From: an uncultured Chloroflexia bacterium
Lineage (GTDB): Bacteria; Chloroflexota; Anaerolineae; CG2-30-64-16
DNA: 64,000 nt
NCBI GenBank assembly: GCA_963774265.1
Contig: CAVZDU010000003.1
Coordinates: 160,001 to 224,000 of the forward strand
Reading direction: 5' to 3'
The position numbers and the translations under genes are program-made. This document shows, piece after piece, positions 13,682 through 19,245 of the stretch (position 1 is the first letter of the stretch; each line of letters opens with the position of its first letter). Under the pieces are notes generated by a model, which saw nothing but the letters and a program-made list of their open reading frames with translations, was not told where the DNA came from and ran no database searches.

Positions 13682-15467
13682 GATTCTGCTGGCAAACACT
13701 AAGCCGCTAACTGTATGGCAGCCAGACAAGCCAGGCTGGGCGGCCGCGTGGTACCAGGGCGATAGCCCATGAGCCACAGGGCCGCGCGTCTGACGTTGAC
13801 GGCGATGGCAATCAGCAGGTTTTGGACGTGTGTTTTGGTGGCGCCCTTGTAGCGCGAGCGGCGAGCGCCATGGGCGCGGATCAGGGCGGAGATGGTGCCT
13901 TCGACGCCCGCCCGCAGGGTGTACTCGGCGTGAAAGTCAGCGGTCTGCTGATGCTGGCGACCGGTCTGCAGGGTCTCGTAGTAGGCCTTGAGTTTGAGTG
14001 TGCGACCCCCCGTCTCACTCCGCGTGCAGCGCTCCCGCACAGGACAGGCGCGGCAGGTGGCTTGTGGAAACTCGATCTGGATTTCGCGCGGCTCAGCGCG
14101 GGCACTGGCCCGCCAGCGATAGGATGTTTGGCCTTGCGGACAGATGGCGTGTTGCTGCTGGTGATCGATGTGGAACTGATCCAGGGTGATGCCACCCTGC
14201 GTATGGGCTTGCCAACTGACATCGGCGGGCAGGGGGCCGATCAGGCGCACCCCGTAGTCGGCGGCGCTGTCAACGACGTTGCGTCCCGAGGTGTAACCGC
14301 CATCGACCCAATGGGCGCTGGGCAGCAGAGCGCGTCGCTGCAGGTCGGCATGAATCTTGGGGAGCAGTTCGACATCGCGCTCGGCGGTGGAGGTCGTTGC
14401 CACATGGGTGATCAGGTGCGGCTGGTCGTGGTCGCAGGTCTCGGTCCAATGCACGGCGTAGCCGGTCCACGCCTGGGCATCATGCGCCGTGAAACGCGCC
14501 TCTGGATCATGCGGAGTGACAATGACCTGCCCAGCTGGAGGCTTATCAGCCTTGGCGCGCCAGCGCGGCCCATCCGCAGGGCGTTCGAATTGCTGCGTCC
14601 AGACCTCGGCCAAGACAACCACCGCCGGCAAGGTCGCCGCCTGGCTGGGCACGTCCGCTCGCTGCAGGGCGTCCAGCAGATGATAACCGTCCCGCCCGAT
14701 GTCCAGGGCCAGCGCCGCCTGCTTCTCCTTGGTGCGCGGCAGCCGAAAGCCGGTCAGCACCAGACCATAGCGCGCGGACCAATGTGGCAGGGCAATCGTC
14801 CGCAACCAGGCCGGCCGGTACTCGGACAGCGCTTCCAGCGCCAGCCGGACCGTCTCGGCCACCAACTGCAGCCGGTTCAGCAACTGCGTCGCCGCCAGCA
14901 CGGCCGCCGAATCGGTGCGTTGCCGGCCCCCCTTCTTGAGCAGGTTCAAAGCCACCAAGCGCTTCAGCACGTGTTCAAACATATCTTGGGCGCGCTCGTG
15001 TGCGGCCAGTCGTTGCCGAAACTCGCTCAGCACCGAGCTATCGAAGCCCGTGTCCTCCAAGGCCAGATGCAGAGCATATTTCCAGTCAATGCGCGAGCGC
15101 ACGGCGTCAGCCGCTTCGCTATCGGGCAGGTTCTCCATGAACTGGAAGATCGTGACCAAAGCCAGCAGATTGGGCGACAGTGCCGGCGCACCGTCGGCGG
15201 CGTACAGGGCTGCAAAATCCAGGCCCTCGAAGAGGTTGCCCAGATGGTCGCCAATCGTCACGTAGATGTTGCCCTTACGTCTGAATGCCGCCTTCGCAAC
15301 ACGCGCGGTCGCCTCCGGCAGGATGGGAAATGATGCGGCGGGTAGTGACATGCAGAACCTCCGGCTGAACATAGGCTTGCTAGCGTGCGGCCCACACTAC
15401 CCGCCCCGCTCTGTTTTGTCAACGCCGTCGCACGCCACTTCAGCCCTAGCTGTTTGCCAGCAGAATC
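13682..15467 (-). mobile_element. IS1182-family insertion sequence
   Basis: Terminal IRs GATTCTGCTGGCAAACA / TGTTTGCCAGCAGAATC; flanking TTCCAA duplication (13676-13681, 15468-15473; or TCCA if the IR is 1 nt longer). Confidence 0.9.
13699..15351 (-). CDS. IS1182-family DDE transposase
   Basis: 'LVTIFQFMENLPD.EAADAVRSRIDWKYAL', 'FD.SVLSEFR.RL', 'RTDS', 'VDGGY', 'CPQG', 'C..CP....C', 'Y.LRAGVEGTIS'. Confidence 0.9.
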   Translation of the reverse strand: MSLPAASFPILPEATARVAKAAFRRKGNIYVTIGDHLGNLFEGLDFAALYAADGAPALSPNLLALVTIFQFMENLPDSEAADAVRSRIDWKYALHLALEDTGFDSSVLSEFRQRLAAHERAQDMFEHVLKRLVALNLLKKGGRQRTDSAAVLAATQLLNRLQLVAETVRLALEALSEYRPAWLRTIALPHWSARYGLVLTGFRLPRTKEKQAALALDIGRDGYHLLDALQRADVPSQAATLPAVVVLAEVWTQQFERPADGPRWRAKADKPPAGQVIVTPHDPEARFTAHDAQAWTGYAVHWTETCDHDQPHLITHVATTSTAERDVELLPKIHADLQRRALLPSAHWVDGGYTSGRNVVDSAADYGVRLIGPLPADVSWQAHTQGGITLDQFHIDHQQQHAICPQGQTSYRWRASARAEPREIQIEFPQATCRACPVRERCTRSETGGRTLKLKAYYETLQTGRQHQQTADFHAEYTLRAGVEGTISALIRAHGARRSRYKGATKTHVQNLLIAIAVNVRRAALWLMGYRPGTTRPPSLACLAAIQLAA

Positions 15468-15479
15468 TTCCAACTGACG

Positions 15480-15723
15480 GCTGGCCGAAGAAGGGCAACT
15501 GGCTGAGGCGGAAGCGGTCGCGTCAAAGCGAGTGCTGGCGTTTCAGATCGCCAAGCTGATGGCAGAACAGCAGTTGACGAAGGCGGAGATGGCGCGCCGC
15601 ATGAACACAAGCCGTGCGGCGGTAGATGGGTTGCTGGATTCTGACACTGAATCGGCCACGCTGGCAACTCTGGAAAAGGCAGCGGCCGCGCTTGGACGCA
15701 GGCTGCACATTGCTTTGGTGTAG
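15480..15723 (+). pseudogene. XRE/HigA-like HTH antitoxin, 5'-truncated
   Basis: 'LAEEGQLAEAEAVASKRVLAFQIAKLMAEQQLTKAEMARRMNTSRAAVDGLLD....ATLATLEKAAAALGRRLHIALV'; no start codon or RBS for the conserved N-terminus. Confidence 0.7.
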
Positions 15724-15882
15724 TGGTTGGGTTCGAGGCCACGGGCCTAACGGCCACCGCTCCAGCCGCCGCCAAAGCCACGATAACTGTTCAAATACCG
15801 GGCAAGGGCGATCAAGAGGAATCACGCGGACCTGATTTCGAGGAGCAAAGAACGGGGCAGAAAAATAAGCAGAAGAAGACTA

Positions 15883-15983
15883 TTGCATCAGACGTTTGGG
15901 TTGACGCTAATTGTGTTATTGCTAGCTGGGTGCGGCGGAGCGCCAGCCGAGCCGACTGCTACGCCGCCCCCCATTCCATCGTC
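15883..15983 (+). pseudogene. Lipoprotein N-terminal fragment truncated by the right 85-bp repeat
   Basis: Lipobox 'LLLAGC' then 'GGAPAEPTATPPP', after which the frame enters the repeat. Confidence 0.55.
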
Positions 15984-16068
15984 GCATCCGCACGGTGTTC
16001 AAAATTGTGGTACACTGCCAACTGAAACTGTTCCAACTGCGGGAAGGTGTTTGTGTTCATCCCCCCAC
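15984..16068 (+). repeat. 85-bp repeat, right copy
   Basis: GCATCCGCACGG...TGTGGTACACT...GGGAAGGTGTTTGTGTTCATCCCCCCAC; inverted copy at 11929..12013. Confidence 0.95.
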
Positions 16069-16161
16069 CGTGGAGCAGTTTCGTGAATCACGTCAATTCT
16101 GGCGATGCACCCGTCACAGCAACGATTGTCCAAAGTCCAGTCTTCTCCCACGTGGCTCGTT

Positions 16162-16189
16162 TTGTATTTCACAAGGCCGGTGTTACACT
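16162..16189 (+). promoter_or_regulatory. Putative sigma70 promoter of the selenium-related operon
   Basis: TTGTAT (16162-16167), 16-nt spacer, extended -10 TG-t-TACACT (16181-16189). Confidence 0.55.
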
Positions 16190-16253
16190 CATTGCATCGG
16201 ACCTTCCGGGTTCTGTGGCCCGATTTCCGCACCAAACCATCAGGAGCGCAGTC

Positions 16254-16358
16254 GTGTCCTTGCATCACCGCCAAACCTGACCCACCACCCGGATCGCCGG
16301 CCGGCGATCACGGGGTGATCCACATACGTGGGCCGGCGGCGGTGACGCCCCGCCCTGA
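16254..16358 (+). CDS. Putative leader peptide MSLHHRQT-UGA (possible Sec readthrough to the next UGA at 16356)
   Basis: AGGAG at 16242-16246, GTG at 16254, TGA at 16278-16280 followed by hairpin GATCGCC-GGCC-GGCGATC. Confidence 0.6.
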
Positions 16359-16382
16359 TCTGGCCTGGCATCTCCCGCCTGA

Positions 16383-16416
16383 GCCGTCGCCCGCGTATGT
16401 GAGCGACGGTTTTTTG
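16383..16416 (+). terminator. Intrinsic terminator in the leader (attenuator)
   Basis: GCCGTCGC-c-CGC gtat GTG-a-GCGACGGT then a T run, about 20 nt before the RBS/ATG of the desulfurase gene. Confidence 0.85.
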
Positions 16417-16437
16417 TTGTCCACTTCAGGAGCGGGA

Positions 16438-17634
16438 ATGATCTACTTCGACAACGCAGCCACGTCCTGGCCCAAGCCGCCCTGCGTGGCCGAGGCGATG
16501 ACACACTACCTGGCCGAAATCGGCGCCAACCCGGGCCGGTCCGGCCACCGCCTGGCTGTCGATGCGGCACGCGTGATTTACAGCGCACGCGAGGCCGTGG
16601 CCGAATTGTTCGGCGCGCCCGACCCCCTGCGGGTGGTCTTTGGCGCGAACGCGACTGAGGCGCTCAACCTGGCGCTGAACGGGCTCCTGACGCCGGGCGA
16701 CCATGTGATCACGGCCAGCATGGAGCACAACTCCGTGATGCGGCCACTGCGCAACCTGGAGCGCCAGGGCGTGGCGCTGACAGTGGTGCGCTGCTCGCCC
16801 CAGGGTGAGCTCAATCCGGAGGAGCTTGAGGCGGCTATCCGGCCGGACACCCGGCTGATCGTCCTCAACCACGCATCCAACGTCACCGGCACGCTCCTGC
16901 CGGTGGCGGAGGTGGGGCATATCGCTCGATCCCGTGGGATCCCACGATCTCGTGGGATCCCACGATCCCACGGCATCCTGCTGCTGGTCGACGCGGCGCA
17001 GACCGCGGGCGCTTACCCCATCGACGTGCAGGCCGACGCCATCGACCTGCTCGCGTTCAGCGGCCACAAGTCGCTGTACGGGCCGATGGGCACGGGTGGA
17101 CTGGTCATCGGCGAGCGGGTTGATGAGTCGCAGCTTGCGCCACTGAAGCGCGGGGGCACGGGCAGCCGCTCGGAGTACGAAGAGCAGCCCGAGTTTCTGC
17201 CCGACCTGTGCGAGAGCGGGACGCCCAACGCGGTCGGGCTGGCCGGCCTGGCCGCCGGCACGCGCTGGGTCCTGGCGCAGGGGATGGACCACATCCGATC
17301 GCACGAGGTGGCCCTGACCGGGCGGTTGCTGGCCGGGCTCGATGCCATCCCCGGCGTCACTGTCTATGGCACGGGCGATGCTCAGCGCCAGACCGCCACG
17401 GTGTCCTTCAACATCGCCGGCATCGAACCGTCTGAGGTCGGGTTGCGCCTGGACGATGAGTACGGGATCATGTGCCGCGTTGGGCTGCACTGTTCGCCGG
17501 CCGCGCACCGCACCTTGGGCACCTTCCCCTCTGGGACGGTGCGCTTCGGGCTGGGTGTGTTCAACACGGCTGAGGAAGTGGGGGCCGCGCTGGACGCAGT
17601 GGCCTCCCTGGCGCAGGAGGCGCGCTTCGCGTGA
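16438..17634 (+). CDS. Cysteine desulfurase/selenocysteine lyase family (class V PLP enzyme, selenium-operon type)
   Basis: 'IYFDNAATSWPKP', 'NHASNVTG', 'DAAQTAG', 'SGHKSLYGP.GTG', 'CRVGLHC'; AGGAG RBS before ATG 16438. Confidence 0.92.
   Translation: MIYFDNAATSWPKPPCVAEAMTHYLAEIGANPGRSGHRLAVDAARVIYSAREAVAELFGAPDPLRVVFGANATEALNLALNGLLTPGDHVITASMEHNSVMRPLRNLERQGVALTVVRCSPQGELNPEELEAAIRPDTRLIVLNHASNVTGTLLPVAEVGHIARSRGIPRSRGIPRSHGILLLVDAAQTAGAYPIDVQADAIDLLAFSGHKSLYGPMGTGGLVIGERVDESQLAPLKRGGTGSRSEYEEQPEFLPDLCESGTPNAVGLAGLAAGTRWVLAQGMDHIRSHEVALTGRLLAGLDAIPGVTVYGTGDAQRQTATVSFNIAGIEPSEVGLRLDDEYGIMCRVGLHCSPAAHRTLGTFPSGTVRFGLGVFNTAEEVGAALDAVASLAQEARFA
16927..16978 (+). repeat. In-frame 18-bp tandem triplication (SRGIPR)
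   Basis: cgatcccgtgggatccca / cgatctcgtgggatccca / cgatcccacggcatcc. Confidence 0.9.
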
Positions 17635-17858
17635 GCGGGGAAGGCTACGCAGTCATCCTGGTTTATTCCACCAGCCATGCCATGCGCATCGAAAAGCTGC
17701 TGGCGGAGCGGGGGATCACCTGCAAGATGATCCCCGTCCCGCGGCGGATCAGTTCCGATTGCGGGGTCTGCGTCCGCATCCTGCGCTCTCAGGTCGAGGC
17801 TGCCCGCATGACCGTACAGGATGCCAGGATCGAAATCCAGGACATCGTCGATGTTTGA
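17631..17858 (+). CDS. DUF3343 small putative Se/S carrier protein
   Basis: 'STSHAMR.EK.L', 'IPVPRRISSDCG'; start overlaps the upstream stop (GTGA). Confidence 0.85.
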   Translation: MSGEGYAVILVYSTSHAMRIEKLLAERGITCKMIPVPRRISSDCGVCVRILRSQVEAARMTVQDARIEIQDIVDV

Positions 17859-17876: not shown

Positions 17877-18275
17877 GTGAAGTCTGACGCGCAAGTTCAG
17901 CAGGCGGCTGGCCATGCTGTCGATATCGGGTCTGCCGGCGGATCGTCGGTGCTGCTCGTCGCCAGCGAAATCGTTGGCCGCGGCGATGAAGAACTGGGGC
18001 ATATCCTGGTTCGGAGTTTCTTCCATGCCCTGGGTGAAGTGCAGCCGCTGCCCGACACGATTATCTTTCTCAACAGCGGAGTCAAGCTCGTCGCGGCCGG
18101 TTCGCCTGTGGTGGCTGACCTTTCTGGCCTGAGCGATCGAGGGGTCGCCATTCTCGCGTGCGGCACCTGCCTGGGTTACTATGAGTTGAAGGACAAGGTC
18201 GCGGTCGGGGAGATCTCCAACATGTACGCGATTGCTGAGACCTTGCTGAGCGCCAGGAAAGTGATCAGCCTGTGA
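17877..18275 (+). CDS. yedF: YedF-like selenium metabolism protein (DsrE-fold domain)
   Basis: 'GRGDEELG.IL..SF', 'IIFLNSGVKL', 'ACGTCL.YY', 'VGEISNMY.I'. Confidence 0.8.
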   Translation: MKSDAQVQQAAGHAVDIGSAGGSSVLLVASEIVGRGDEELGHILVRSFFHALGEVQPLPDTIIFLNSGVKLVAAGSPVVADLSGLSDRGVAILACGTCLGYYELKDKVAVGEISNMYAIAETLLSARKVISL

Positions 18276-18345: not shown

Positions 18346-19245
18346 ATGACCTTCGTCCGCGAGATCGAGGCCAGGACTTTGCTGAGCGCCGCGAAGACGC
18401 CGGACCCCTGGTTCGGCATCAAGTACACGATGAACCTCTACCGCGGCTGCCAGCATCGCTGCATCTATTGTGACAGCCGCAGCGAGTGTTACGGGATCGC
18501 GGATTTCGATGGCGAGCTGCTGGTCAAGACCAACGCGCTGGACCTGCTGGGCAAGGAGCTCAAGCGCAAGCGCGTGAAGGGCTACGTGGGTACGGGCTCG
18601 ATGAACGACCCCTACATGCCTGCGGAGTGCGAGTTGCGGCTCACGCGCGGCGCACTGGAGATCCTTGCCGAGCACGCCTTCCCGGTTCATGTGCTGACCA
18701 AGAGCGACCTGGTGCTGCGAGATGCGGATCTGCTGGCTGAGCTGGAACGCCGCGCCGCGTCCCCCGAGTCTCCCGGTGCAGTGATCAGCTTCACGATCAC
18801 CACGGCGGACGACGACCTTGCACGCCAGTTGGAGCCGGGTGCACCCTCGCCCTCGCGCCGGTTTGCGGCGCTGGAAGCGCTATCGAAACGGGGACTGTGC
18901 ACCGGTGTCATGCTCATGCCGGTGTTGCCCTTTCTGGAGGATGCGCCGGAGAGCGTGGCGGAGGTTGTGCGGCGGGCTGCCGGGTGCGGCGCGCACCATG
19001 TCGTGCCCGCCTTCGGAGTCACCTTGCGCGACCGCCAGCGCGACCACTTTTACCGGGAGTTGGAGGCCCGATTCCCCGGCGTTCGTGAACGCTACGAGCG
19101 GAGCTTCGGAACCCGTTATCAGGCCTCTGCGCGCAATACCGCGAGGCTGGAGGCCGTCTTCGCCGAGCTGGCCGCGCGTCATGGCCTGGCCCGCCGCGTC
19201 GCCCCGTGGGTCCCACCGGGTCCGGAGCAGCTGGCGCTGCTCTAG
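18346..19245 (+). CDS. Radical SAM protein (SplB/Rv2578c-like)
   Basis: 'NLYRGCQHRCIYCD' CxxxCxxC, 'GSMNDPY.P.E', 'LTKSDLVLRD'. Confidence 0.88.
   Translation: MTFVREIEARTLLSAAKTPDPWFGIKYTMNLYRGCQHRCIYCDSRSECYGIADFDGELLVKTNALDLLGKELKRKRVKGYVGTGSMNDPYMPAECELRLTRGALEILAEHAFPVHVLTKSDLVLRDADLLAELERRAASPESPGAVISFTITTADDDLARQLEPGAPSPSRRFAALEALSKRGLCTGVMLMPVLPFLEDAPESVAEVVRRAAGCGAHHVVPAFGVTLRDRQRDHFYRELEARFPGVRERYERSFGTRYQASARNTARLEAVFAELAARHGLARRVAPWVPPGPEQLALL

Follow-up and report, generated by a model that had tools for sequence, protein, structure and literature searches.

Introduction

The trp, his, leu, thr and pheA attenuators of Escherichia coli share a compact anatomy, in which a Shine-Dalgarno (SD) sequence and a short leader open reading frame (ORF) place the regulatory codon within RNA segment 1, the segments engage in mutually exclusive 1:2, 2:3 and 3:4 pairings, an intrinsic terminator precedes the structural genes, the stop is positioned such that a read-through ribosome prevents the antiterminator, and the regulated genes supply the aminoacyl-tRNA that is sensed. 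This leader-peptide logic is outlined in the introduction of PMC3892789. Here, we analyze a leader of the same anatomy at positions 16162-16437 of a 64,000-nucleotide stretch of contig CAVZDU010000003.1 (assembly GCA_963774265.1; hereafter, the window) from an uncultured Chloroflexia bacterium, where it stands in front of selenium-mobilization genes. We have high confidence that this element is a leader that regulates selenium genes in a ribosome-dependent manner. Comparison of related sequences further suggests that it is probably a trp-type attenuator in which the sensed step is the decoding of an in-frame UGA as selenocysteine (Sec), the operon being ON when Sec-tRNA is scarce. Its anatomy is that of the ribosome-mediated attenuator class; the response to charged tRNA is predicted.

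Mapped onto the trp leader, segment 1 corresponds to the 5' strand of a helix denoted P1, at the hungry codon, segment 2 to the stretch 2a/2b, and segments 3 and 4 to the terminator. Unlike in the amino-acid attenuators, the regulatory codon would be a stop recoded by SelB and a hairpin resembling a Sec insertion sequence (SECIS), set between segments 1 and 2; failure to decode it would reflect competition with release factor 2 (RF2) and not simple waiting; and the genes serve a trace element, through its uptake, selenophosphate synthesis and selenium mobilization. No Rfam leader family matches.

Related principles are known from other systems. TnaC, the leader peptide of the tna operon, is short and ends in UGA, and the nascent peptide holds the ribosome at this stop, controlling downstream transcription. 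TnaC responds to free tryptophan through Rho and has neither a SECIS-like hairpin nor a read-through frame; it is relevant only as a model for a possible role of the peptide motif H-R-[RQK]-T described below. A SECIS-like element regulating E. coli selAB was reportedly described by Thanbichler and Bock in 2002 (EMBO J 21:6925). According to the sections of PMC13449736 devoted to it, this hairpin in the selAB 5' untranslated region signals to Sec-pathway genes how much SelB-GTP-Sec-tRNA is present, as the window's hairpin would. It lacks a UGA and a leader ORF, is situated 3 nt from the SD of selA and represses the initiation of translation. In the present leader, in contrast, the hairpin follows 11 nt after a UGA that is in frame within a conserved ORF; about 120 nt separate it from the next SD, and it is linked to a terminator and an antiterminator. 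In the fdhF(Sec) gene of Treponema primitia, too, decoding of a Sec UGA or its failure decides how far RNA polymerase proceeds; however, this effect, in the part of PMC3892789 concerned with it, acts inside the selenoprotein gene itself, gives more transcript with more selenium and involves no leader and no alternative helices.

An attenuator responding to a rare amino acid has been engineered, none having been reported in nature as of 2013 according to the relevant passage of PMC3892789. We found no description of a UGA/SECIS leader attenuator in open-access full texts and bioRxiv, subscription journals and supplements being outside the search, and a 2026 review of prokaryotic selenoproteomes does not contain the words leader, attenuat- or riboswitch (PMC13188914). 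As far as the corresponding section of PMC5322559 goes, only a putative LysR-type regulator has so far been proposed for bacterial selenium genes. Judged from sequence, what would be new in the present case is thus not the attenuator logic, which is known, but a regulatory codon that is a recoded UGA with a SECIS-like hairpin.

An invariant UGA within a conserved leader frame

Covariance-model searches returned 29 matches that we consider real, 27 of them distinct; 24 distinct leaders were aligned with MAFFT, leaving out L067, L069 and L233, which are near-identical to kept rows. In all 29, an SD sequence and a start codon are followed by a short ORF ending in TGA, and the peptide terminates with [HY]-[HD]-R-[QR]-[TA] directly before this stop. 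Variation within the ORF comprises a 3-nt indel after the start and synonymous changes (CAT/CAC, TAT/TAC, CAA/CAG, TTG/CTG, CGC/CGT/CGA and ACC/ACA/ACG), the Arg at -3 being coded by CGC, CGT or CGA and the Thr at -1 by ACC, ACA or ACG. The motif H-R-[RQK]-T is kept in genomes of another class and in diverged leaders (see below), despite differing surrounding nucleotides.

The first stop is TGA in all 24 aligned leaders and in every diverged one; for comparison, the ordinary stops of 33 long ORFs in the window are TGA in 18 cases, TAG in 11 and TAA in 4. Past the TGA, the frame remains open for 60-123 nt in 24/24, with stops over the same stretch in frames +1 and +2 of 10/24 and 11/24 leaders, respectively. 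A second stop follows between segments 2b and 3 in each of the 24 aligned full-length leaders, and the aligned second-stop codon is in frame in 20 of them (TGA in 17, TAG in 1 and TAA in 2). The frame is preserved in length variants of +15, +9, +24, +48 and -3 nt, and three lineages of other lengths use a nearby substitute in-frame stop. Two lineages, L225/L229 and L265/L267 (G074/G116), have a second in-frame TGA, separated from the first by a single codon (TGA ATT TGA and TGA TTR TGA), reminiscent of the tandem regulatory codons of classical attenuators.

The preliminary description of this DNA, made from the letters alone, proposed a UGA followed by a hairpin as the sensor of the terminator, and both prove to be kept wherever the terminator is (29/29 real matches, 6 of which were drawn by a pattern in the terminator region that does not include the leader ORF). 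We also considered an attenuator sensing His or Arg, given the HHRR codons, and rejected it because the leader serves selenium genes. A protein gene overlapping the leader or antisense to it was likewise rejected: the ORFs at 16002-16274 (minus strand) and 15883-16083 (plus strand) have no Pfam match, and the conservation follows an RNA-helix pattern.

A hairpin resembling the SECIS elements of the same genome

The hairpin downstream of the UGA resembles a bacterial SECIS element in its distance from this codon. Its cells in the alignment are paired in 92% of cases (23 sequences), the 7 upper pairs being formed in 23/23, and 5 of its 11 pairs show compensatory changes. The upper stem begins 11 nt past the UGA in the window and in 22/24 leaders overall, with 9 and 10 nt in the other two and 12-15 nt in diverged leaders; in E. 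coli fdhF, about 11 nt separate the UGA from the upper stem of the SECIS. A G occupies one of the first two loop positions in 24/24 (loops GGUU, AGUU, GGCC, GUUC, GGUC, GGUG and like). The dinucleotide GU, which is essential in the loop of the E. coli fdhF SECIS, occurs in most loops, exceptions including GGCC in the window and GGGG in L224.

The Sec machinery on which such a sensor would depend, and which the preliminary description proposed to look for, is present: the window's genome encodes selD (382 bits, with 1 in-frame TGA), selB (293 bits), tRNA-Sec (73 bits) and selA (506 bits). Comparison with the SECIS elements of the genome's own selenoprotein genes, suggested in the same place, shows similar loops in a formate dehydrogenase (FDH)-like gene (TGA, 12 nt, GUCACC-GGUCU-GGUGAC), a peroxiredoxin (Prx)-like gene (GGCGC-AGUU-GCGCC) and selD, where the element (GCGCA-GGUCC-UGCGC) lies 27 nt past the TGA. 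In sequence, the leader hairpin thus resembles the genome's own SECIS elements; binding of SelB to the hairpin and insertion of Sec at the leader UGA are predicted.

Two of these genes have irregularities. selA (G000:C1:1423592-1424922) is split between two adjoining frames (model positions 2-388 and 387-453), which suggests that the region towards its 3' end contains either a frameshift or an assembly error. The FDH-alpha-like gene (G000:C3:234465-236391; L251), which has a Sec-type TGA (CARL-U-HSAT) and the GGUCU-loop SECIS, contains a TAA and frame changes further on and may be broken or misassembled.

Mutually exclusive helices and the proposed mechanism

Beyond the hairpin, the leader can form alternative helices. 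In the RNAalifold consensus, positions 16321-16340 pair with 16383-16401 as an antiterminator, the 11-pair core of which is paired in 90% of cells across the 24 leaders, against 15-54% in controls with slid partners, and 7 of the 11 pairs show compensatory changes. The terminator is paired in 94% of cells, with compensatory changes in 5 of 11 pairs, and is followed by a T-rich tail in 24/24 aligned rows. The covariation that the preliminary description proposed to look for is accordingly found in hairpin, antiterminator and terminator.

A further helix, P1, joins the region from -15 to +12 around the UGA to the 2a/2b region and carries the hairpin at its tip. In 22/24 sequences, its RNAduplex energy is more favorable than that of at least 97.5% of 200 dinucleotide-shuffled controls (mean z -3.1), and its strands change together, for instance in L232, L230, L234 and L238 (read by eye from the alignment, uncounted). 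A ribosome whose A site is occupied by the UGA would sit on the 5' strand of P1, and the 3' strand overlaps the antiterminator arm, such that the two uses of segment 2 are mutually exclusive. The 251-nt leader as a whole folds at z = -3.2 relative to 200 shuffles.

On this anatomy, the leader would work as follows. With no ribosome on it, 16264-16286 and 16327-16346 would form P1, the terminator at 16384-16415 would form and the operon would be OFF. Under Sec-tRNA scarcity, the ribosome would be held at the UGA, positioned in the A site, and would mask the 5' strand of P1; with P1 blocked, segment 2a would be free to pair with 16383-16401, no terminator would form and the selenium genes would be transcribed (ON). 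When SelB with Sec-tRNA(Sec) is available, the UGA would be decoded and the ribosome would cross segment 2 to the second stop at 16356, where its footprint (approximately 16341-16368), lying between 2a and segment 3, would keep the antiterminator from closing and let the terminator form (OFF). In this way, the Sec-tRNA pool would feed back negatively on the genes for uptake (yedE) and activation (selD), on a double-cubane reductase gene and on the SclA-like desulfurase, DUF3343 and YedF genes.

The polarity, ON without selenium, we infer from the placement of the second stop, from the logic of repressing the uptake of a toxic trace element and from the response of Methanococcus maripaludis, in which yedE mRNA rises by 5.28 log2 on selenium depletion (PMC11097638, Table 1). 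The UGA-attenuator scheme of the preliminary description is supported by comparison in its main lines, but it lacked P1, and with it the default OFF state, and was silent on RF2.

Selenium genes behind the leader and the absence of yedE

The preliminary description assigned the genes behind the leader to selenium mobilization, and the matches to cysteine desulfurase, PF11823 and TIGR03527 bear this out, as do the selenium genes found behind the leader in relatives. It missed that the leader normally precedes yedE. When 61 related genomes were searched at the DNA level, 6 besides the window's own proved to carry the leader, and in 6/6 of these relatives about 1.5 kb separate the leader from the start of the desulfurase gene. 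In the 2 relatives scanned, the intervening gene is a PF04143/TIGR04112 YedE-family putative selenium transporter, and in the nearest relative the desulfurase start overlaps the yedE stop (ATGA). In the window, by comparison with L021 and L047, positions 16419-16440 consist of post-terminator sequence fused to AGGAGCGGGA-ATG of the desulfurase, and no TIGR04112 gene was found anywhere in the window's genome, which is 84% complete. The lack of yedE both between leader and desulfurase and in the rest of the assembled genome indicates, at the sequence level, that the arrangement in the window is derived and arose by deletion of yedE. Immediately before the leader region, a DDE transposase gene (PF13751, PF05598, PF01609) is present on the minus strand (window 13702-15372). 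Compared with G002, the nearest relative and the only one used for this purpose, no synteny is retained upstream save for 64 nt at the promoter.

Across the leaders, the genes served are largely those of selenium metabolism. yedE was recognized by TIGR04112 in 5/5 loci scanned with NCBIfam (480-493 bits) and by PF04143 in 10/10 loci scanned with Pfam. In 3 genomes that lack yedE, selD with an in-frame TGA is found behind the leader (340-380 bits), once directly after it, once after a desulfurase remnant and once after a YedF-like ORF. In 3 genomes of 2 classes (L230, L240 and L241; 462-500 bits), the gene is that of the double-cubane-cluster anaerobic reductase NF040772. The regulated genes start 20-75 nt after the element, each with its own SD; in the remaining loci, the downstream gene was judged by ORF size, SD and aligned N-terminus alone. 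Co-occurrence with SelD had led to the proposal of YedE, YedF, DUF3343 and Sec lyase as selenium genes (PMC5322559, in the section on these families), and 955 of 970 high-scoring double-cubane proteins come from SelD-containing assemblies (bioRxiv 10.1101/2022.07.06.499078, in the part concerned with them).

Some genomes carry the leader twice. G173 has one copy before yedE and one before the double-cubane reductase gene. On contig C76 of G078 (L237, L226), a second selB copy, a leader with a nucleotidyltransferase gene and a second leader with yedE follow one another in this order. In the closest relative, at approximately 560-1275 of L021 (a locus partly masked with N), a peroxiredoxin gene with TGA at the peroxidatic position (FTFV-U-PTE) lies upstream of the leader.

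Distribution and diverged forms of the leader

The covariance model R1, built from 7 sequences, matches 7 of 37 genomes of the family and 15 of 151 genomes in an even sample of the class Anaerolineae, 14 of which are credible; the weak match in G048 was judged spurious. Of 46 metagenome loci, drawn by a 21-letter pattern in the terminator region with the leader ORF outside the pattern, 6 are real and the other 40 are chance matches. A 15-letter motif used to draw loci from genome_contigs was too loose, matching at least 120 stretches; among the 80 loci listed, 1 is real (from an Anaerolineae bacterium), and L106 is a partial match (E 0.0073). A second model, R2, covering the 5' half, matches 2 of 151 genomes in a sample of the phylum, both in another Chloroflexota class. 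Within the class of G236, it matches 9 of 151 genomes at E <= 0.01; inspection of the G236 and G248 loci and of 7 loci from 6 other genomes, leaving out L248 (G390), found only G236 and G248 credible, the same 2 genomes as in the phylum sample. In these 2 genomes of the other class, a diverged leader (MSRTPFHRRT-TGA) precedes the double-cubane reductase gene.

The association with yedE extends beyond the reach of R1. yedE is present in 43 of the 151 class genomes, 10 of which are R1-positive, and in all 10 the leader lies directly 5' of it. Upstream regions were taken for 20 of the 33 R1-negative yedE genomes, and at least 11 of these 20 have a diverged leader before yedE, with an ORF ending in [HY]-R-[RQK]-[TVS]-TGA and a hairpin with a G-rich loop 12-14 nt on. 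Among the other 9, 3 are doubtful, and 6 have another cluster gene, an operator-type promoter or nothing recognized before yedE.

The diverged leaders of g14, L268/L278/L281 (G034/G029/G020) and L265/L267 (G074/G116) are without a U-tract terminator. In all of these, a helix instead covers the ribosome-binding site of yedE (CCUCGUUGC...GCAACGGAGG or UCCUGUUG...CAACAGGAG in L268/L278/L281 and L265/L267), and it seems that the same sensor acts here on translation. In G106, an ATGA at the start of yedE closes the read-through frame.

Alternative explanations

Several observations weigh against a trp-type attenuator that senses Sec decoding. The weak point is RF2, which in the absence of Sec-tRNA should free the ribosome, restore P1 and switch the operon OFF, such that the scheme presumes a long residence at the UGA. 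As a guess, by analogy with TnaC, the nascent H-R-[RQK]-T might delay release there, as its conservation at the amino-acid level suggests. Folding with a masked ribosome did not separate the states: in 9 of 13 sequences, the terminator is missing from the minimum free energy (MFE) structure with and without the mask, in 11 of 13 it is missing when the mask is placed on the second stop, although OFF is predicted for that position, and P1 plus terminator is nearly equal in energy to the antiterminator. In 4/24 leaders, the conserved second-stop motif is out of frame, each having another in-frame stop within -16 to +5 nt. The extra in-frame TGA of L225/L229 and G074/G116, if a plain stop, would end the leader sooner, and the invariance of the first TGA may be partly structural, as the UGA and the HHR codons lie inside P1. 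In the window's own hairpin, the GGCC loop lacks GU, and no bulged U is evident. The output in g14 and in G074/G116 looks translational, through an anti-SD helix, and not terminator-based, the leader of L237 precedes a nucleotidyltransferase gene, a non-selenium neighbor, and co-occurrence with selB is uninformative, since selB is found not only in 15/15 genomes with the leader but in 130 of all 151 sampled from the class.

Two alternatives deserve weighing, both unlikely. One retains the sensor and inverts its sign: slow SelB-dependent decoding would make the ribosome pause at the UGA, but only while the hairpin is occupied by Sec-tRNA-SelB, giving the antiterminator and induction by selenium, with RF2 freeing the ribosome when selenium is lacking (OFF). 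Since the footprint at the UGA covers the 5' strand of P1 whichever state lasts longer, the helices alone accommodate either sign, and Sec insertion is slow and inefficient in E. coli. Furthermore, the three regulated selD genes need Sec for their own translation, so that their mRNA would be of little use without selenium, and the read-through frame of G106, ending in ATGA on the yedE start, could couple the two translations. What speaks for ON without selenium instead is that the second stop between 2b and 3 in 24/24 has a clear role only if a read-through ribosome blocks the antiterminator, and that uptake genes for a toxic trace element are expected to be repressed at sufficiency; the direction of the yedE response in the M. 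maripaludis data cited above (PMC11097638) agrees with this.

The other, to which we give a similarly low standing, takes the UGA as an ordinary stop at which H-R-[RQK]-T blocks RF2 when a ligand is present, much as tryptophan acts through TnaC; P1 would be opened by the stalled ribosome, and the hairpin would be an RNA polymerase pause site or a structural element. Conservation at the amino-acid level across very different nucleotide contexts fits such an arrest peptide, an RF2-specific arrest would also account for the constant UGA, and neither the GU-less loop of the window nor the absence of an Rfam SECIS-type match would then call for comment. It leaves unexplained, however, the read-through frame that is open in 24/24, the second stop of variable identity, the in-frame length variants and the recurring second in-frame TGA, as well as the 11-nt spacing and the G-rich loop that the leader shares with the genome's own SECIS elements.

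That the ORF is incidental and SelB-GTP-Sec-tRNA on the hairpin simply stabilizes P1, and hence the terminator, is very improbable. The position of the hairpin at the tip of P1 would suit a protein-dependent RNA switch, for which the E. coli selAB operator, in the sections of PMC13449736 on this element, provides a precedent; nevertheless, SD, start codon, frame (with 3-nt indels), synonymous changes and in-frame second stop are all kept, and the UGA lies 11 nt from the hairpin in 22/24. A small selenoprotein of about 34 residues for selenium handling, followed by an ordinary terminator and fortuitous pairings, is scarcely credible: although the UGA-containing frame is open and ends at a conserved stop, the part past the UGA is not conserved as protein and varies together with compensatory changes in the helices, the antiterminator covaries, P1 is stronger than its shuffles, and only 20-75 nt separate the element from the regulated genes, all of which have an SD of their own.

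Implications

Taking the diverged leaders into account, the Sec-decoding attenuator could be one form of a wider system. In this tentative picture, which we consider nearly as likely as not, the speed at which SelB and the SECIS-like hairpin decode the UGA (two UGAs in some lineages) would report the Sec-tRNA(Sec) pool, with the peptide H-R-[RQK]-T holding off RF2, and would set the transcription, in some lineages the translation, of a regulon comprising yedE, selD, the SclA-like desulfurase-DUF3343-YedF genes and NF040772. One sensor module would thus be combined with different output platforms, as in riboswitch classes.

If the attenuator reading is true, this would be the first natural case in which stop-codon recoding itself is the sensor of a genetic switch, and it would fill the regulator gap in selenium biology. 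The element would mark a selenium regulon and provide independent support for YedE as a selenium uptake protein, and it supports the selenium link of the double-cubane reductases, which until now came from co-occurrence alone (bioRxiv 10.1101/2022.07.06.499078, in the part dealing with this family). The reading also predicts short UGA-containing ORFs overlooked by gene callers, and the leader could serve as a compact selenium-responsive part for reporters.

Features of the locus and further observations

The coordinates of the locus are collected in Table 1. All elements listed in the preliminary description (promoter-like site, leader, hairpin, antiterminator and terminator, second stop and genes) lie where it placed them.

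Table 1. Features of the leader and the genes behind it, in window coordinates
Feature	Position	Strand	Details
Promoter-like site	16162-16189	+	-35-like TTGTAT 16162-16167, 16-nt spacer, -10-like TACACT 16184-16189
Shine-Dalgarno AGGAG	16242-16246	+	Sequence
Leader ORF	GTG 16254-16256 to TGA 16278-16280	+	GTG TCC TTG CAT CAC CGC CAA ACC TGA = MSLHHRQT-UGA
P1 (anti-antiterminator), 5' strand	16264-16286	+	Codons HHR, UGA and CCCAC; MFE of leader
Candidate Sec ("hungry") codon UGA	16278-16280	+	Invariant in aligned leaders
Read-through frame, 25 codons	16281-16358	+	Ends at in-frame second stop TGA 16356-16358
SECIS-like hairpin	16288-16314	+	Lower stem CCCG/CGGG 16288-16291/16311-16314
Hairpin upper stem	GATCGCC 16292-16298 / GGCGATC 16303-16309	+	7 bp, loop GGCC 16299-16302
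Segment 2	16321-16346	+	2a 16321-16340, antiterminator 5' arm; 16327-16346, P1 3' strand
Segment 3	16383-16401	+	Antiterminator 3' arm, also terminator 5' arm and loop
Intrinsic terminator	16384-16415	+	CCGTCGC 16384-16390 / GCGACGG 16403-16409, inner CGC/GTG extension, T6 16410-16415
SclA-like cysteine desulfurase	16438-17634	+	TIGR01977, 445 bits; SclA model 393 bits, below its 525 cut-off
DUF3343 / Se_S_carrier	17631-17858	+	PF11823
YedF-like	17877-18275	+	TIGR03527 selenium_YedF, C-terminal part

The promoter is a candidate only, the TTGTAT/TACACT site not having been called by a consensus promoter scan; the block GTTTG..ATTTCACAA..GATGCTATACT is kept in 6 of 7 aligned relatives. The ATTTCACAA block itself (window 16167-16175; alignment A2), which the -35-like and -10-like hexamers flank, may serve to bind a protein. 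No sequencing run contained more than 0.13 of the stretch's sampled words.

No family of Rfam 15, and hence no known riboswitch of the kind that the preliminary description had raised as a competing explanation, matches 16162-16437 at E <= 10. The scan of 15500-17000 gave 5 matches at this threshold, all at 16628-16966 inside the desulfurase gene. At window 16932-16965, within the intact desulfurase ORF, an 18-nt unit occurs in 2 tandem copies, each with the 12-nt palindrome GTGGGATCCCAC, and this repeat accounts for chance matches to microRNA models in the scan. Further downstream, after a 70-nt gap following the YedF-like gene, lies an Rv2578c-like radical SAM gene (window 18346-19245).

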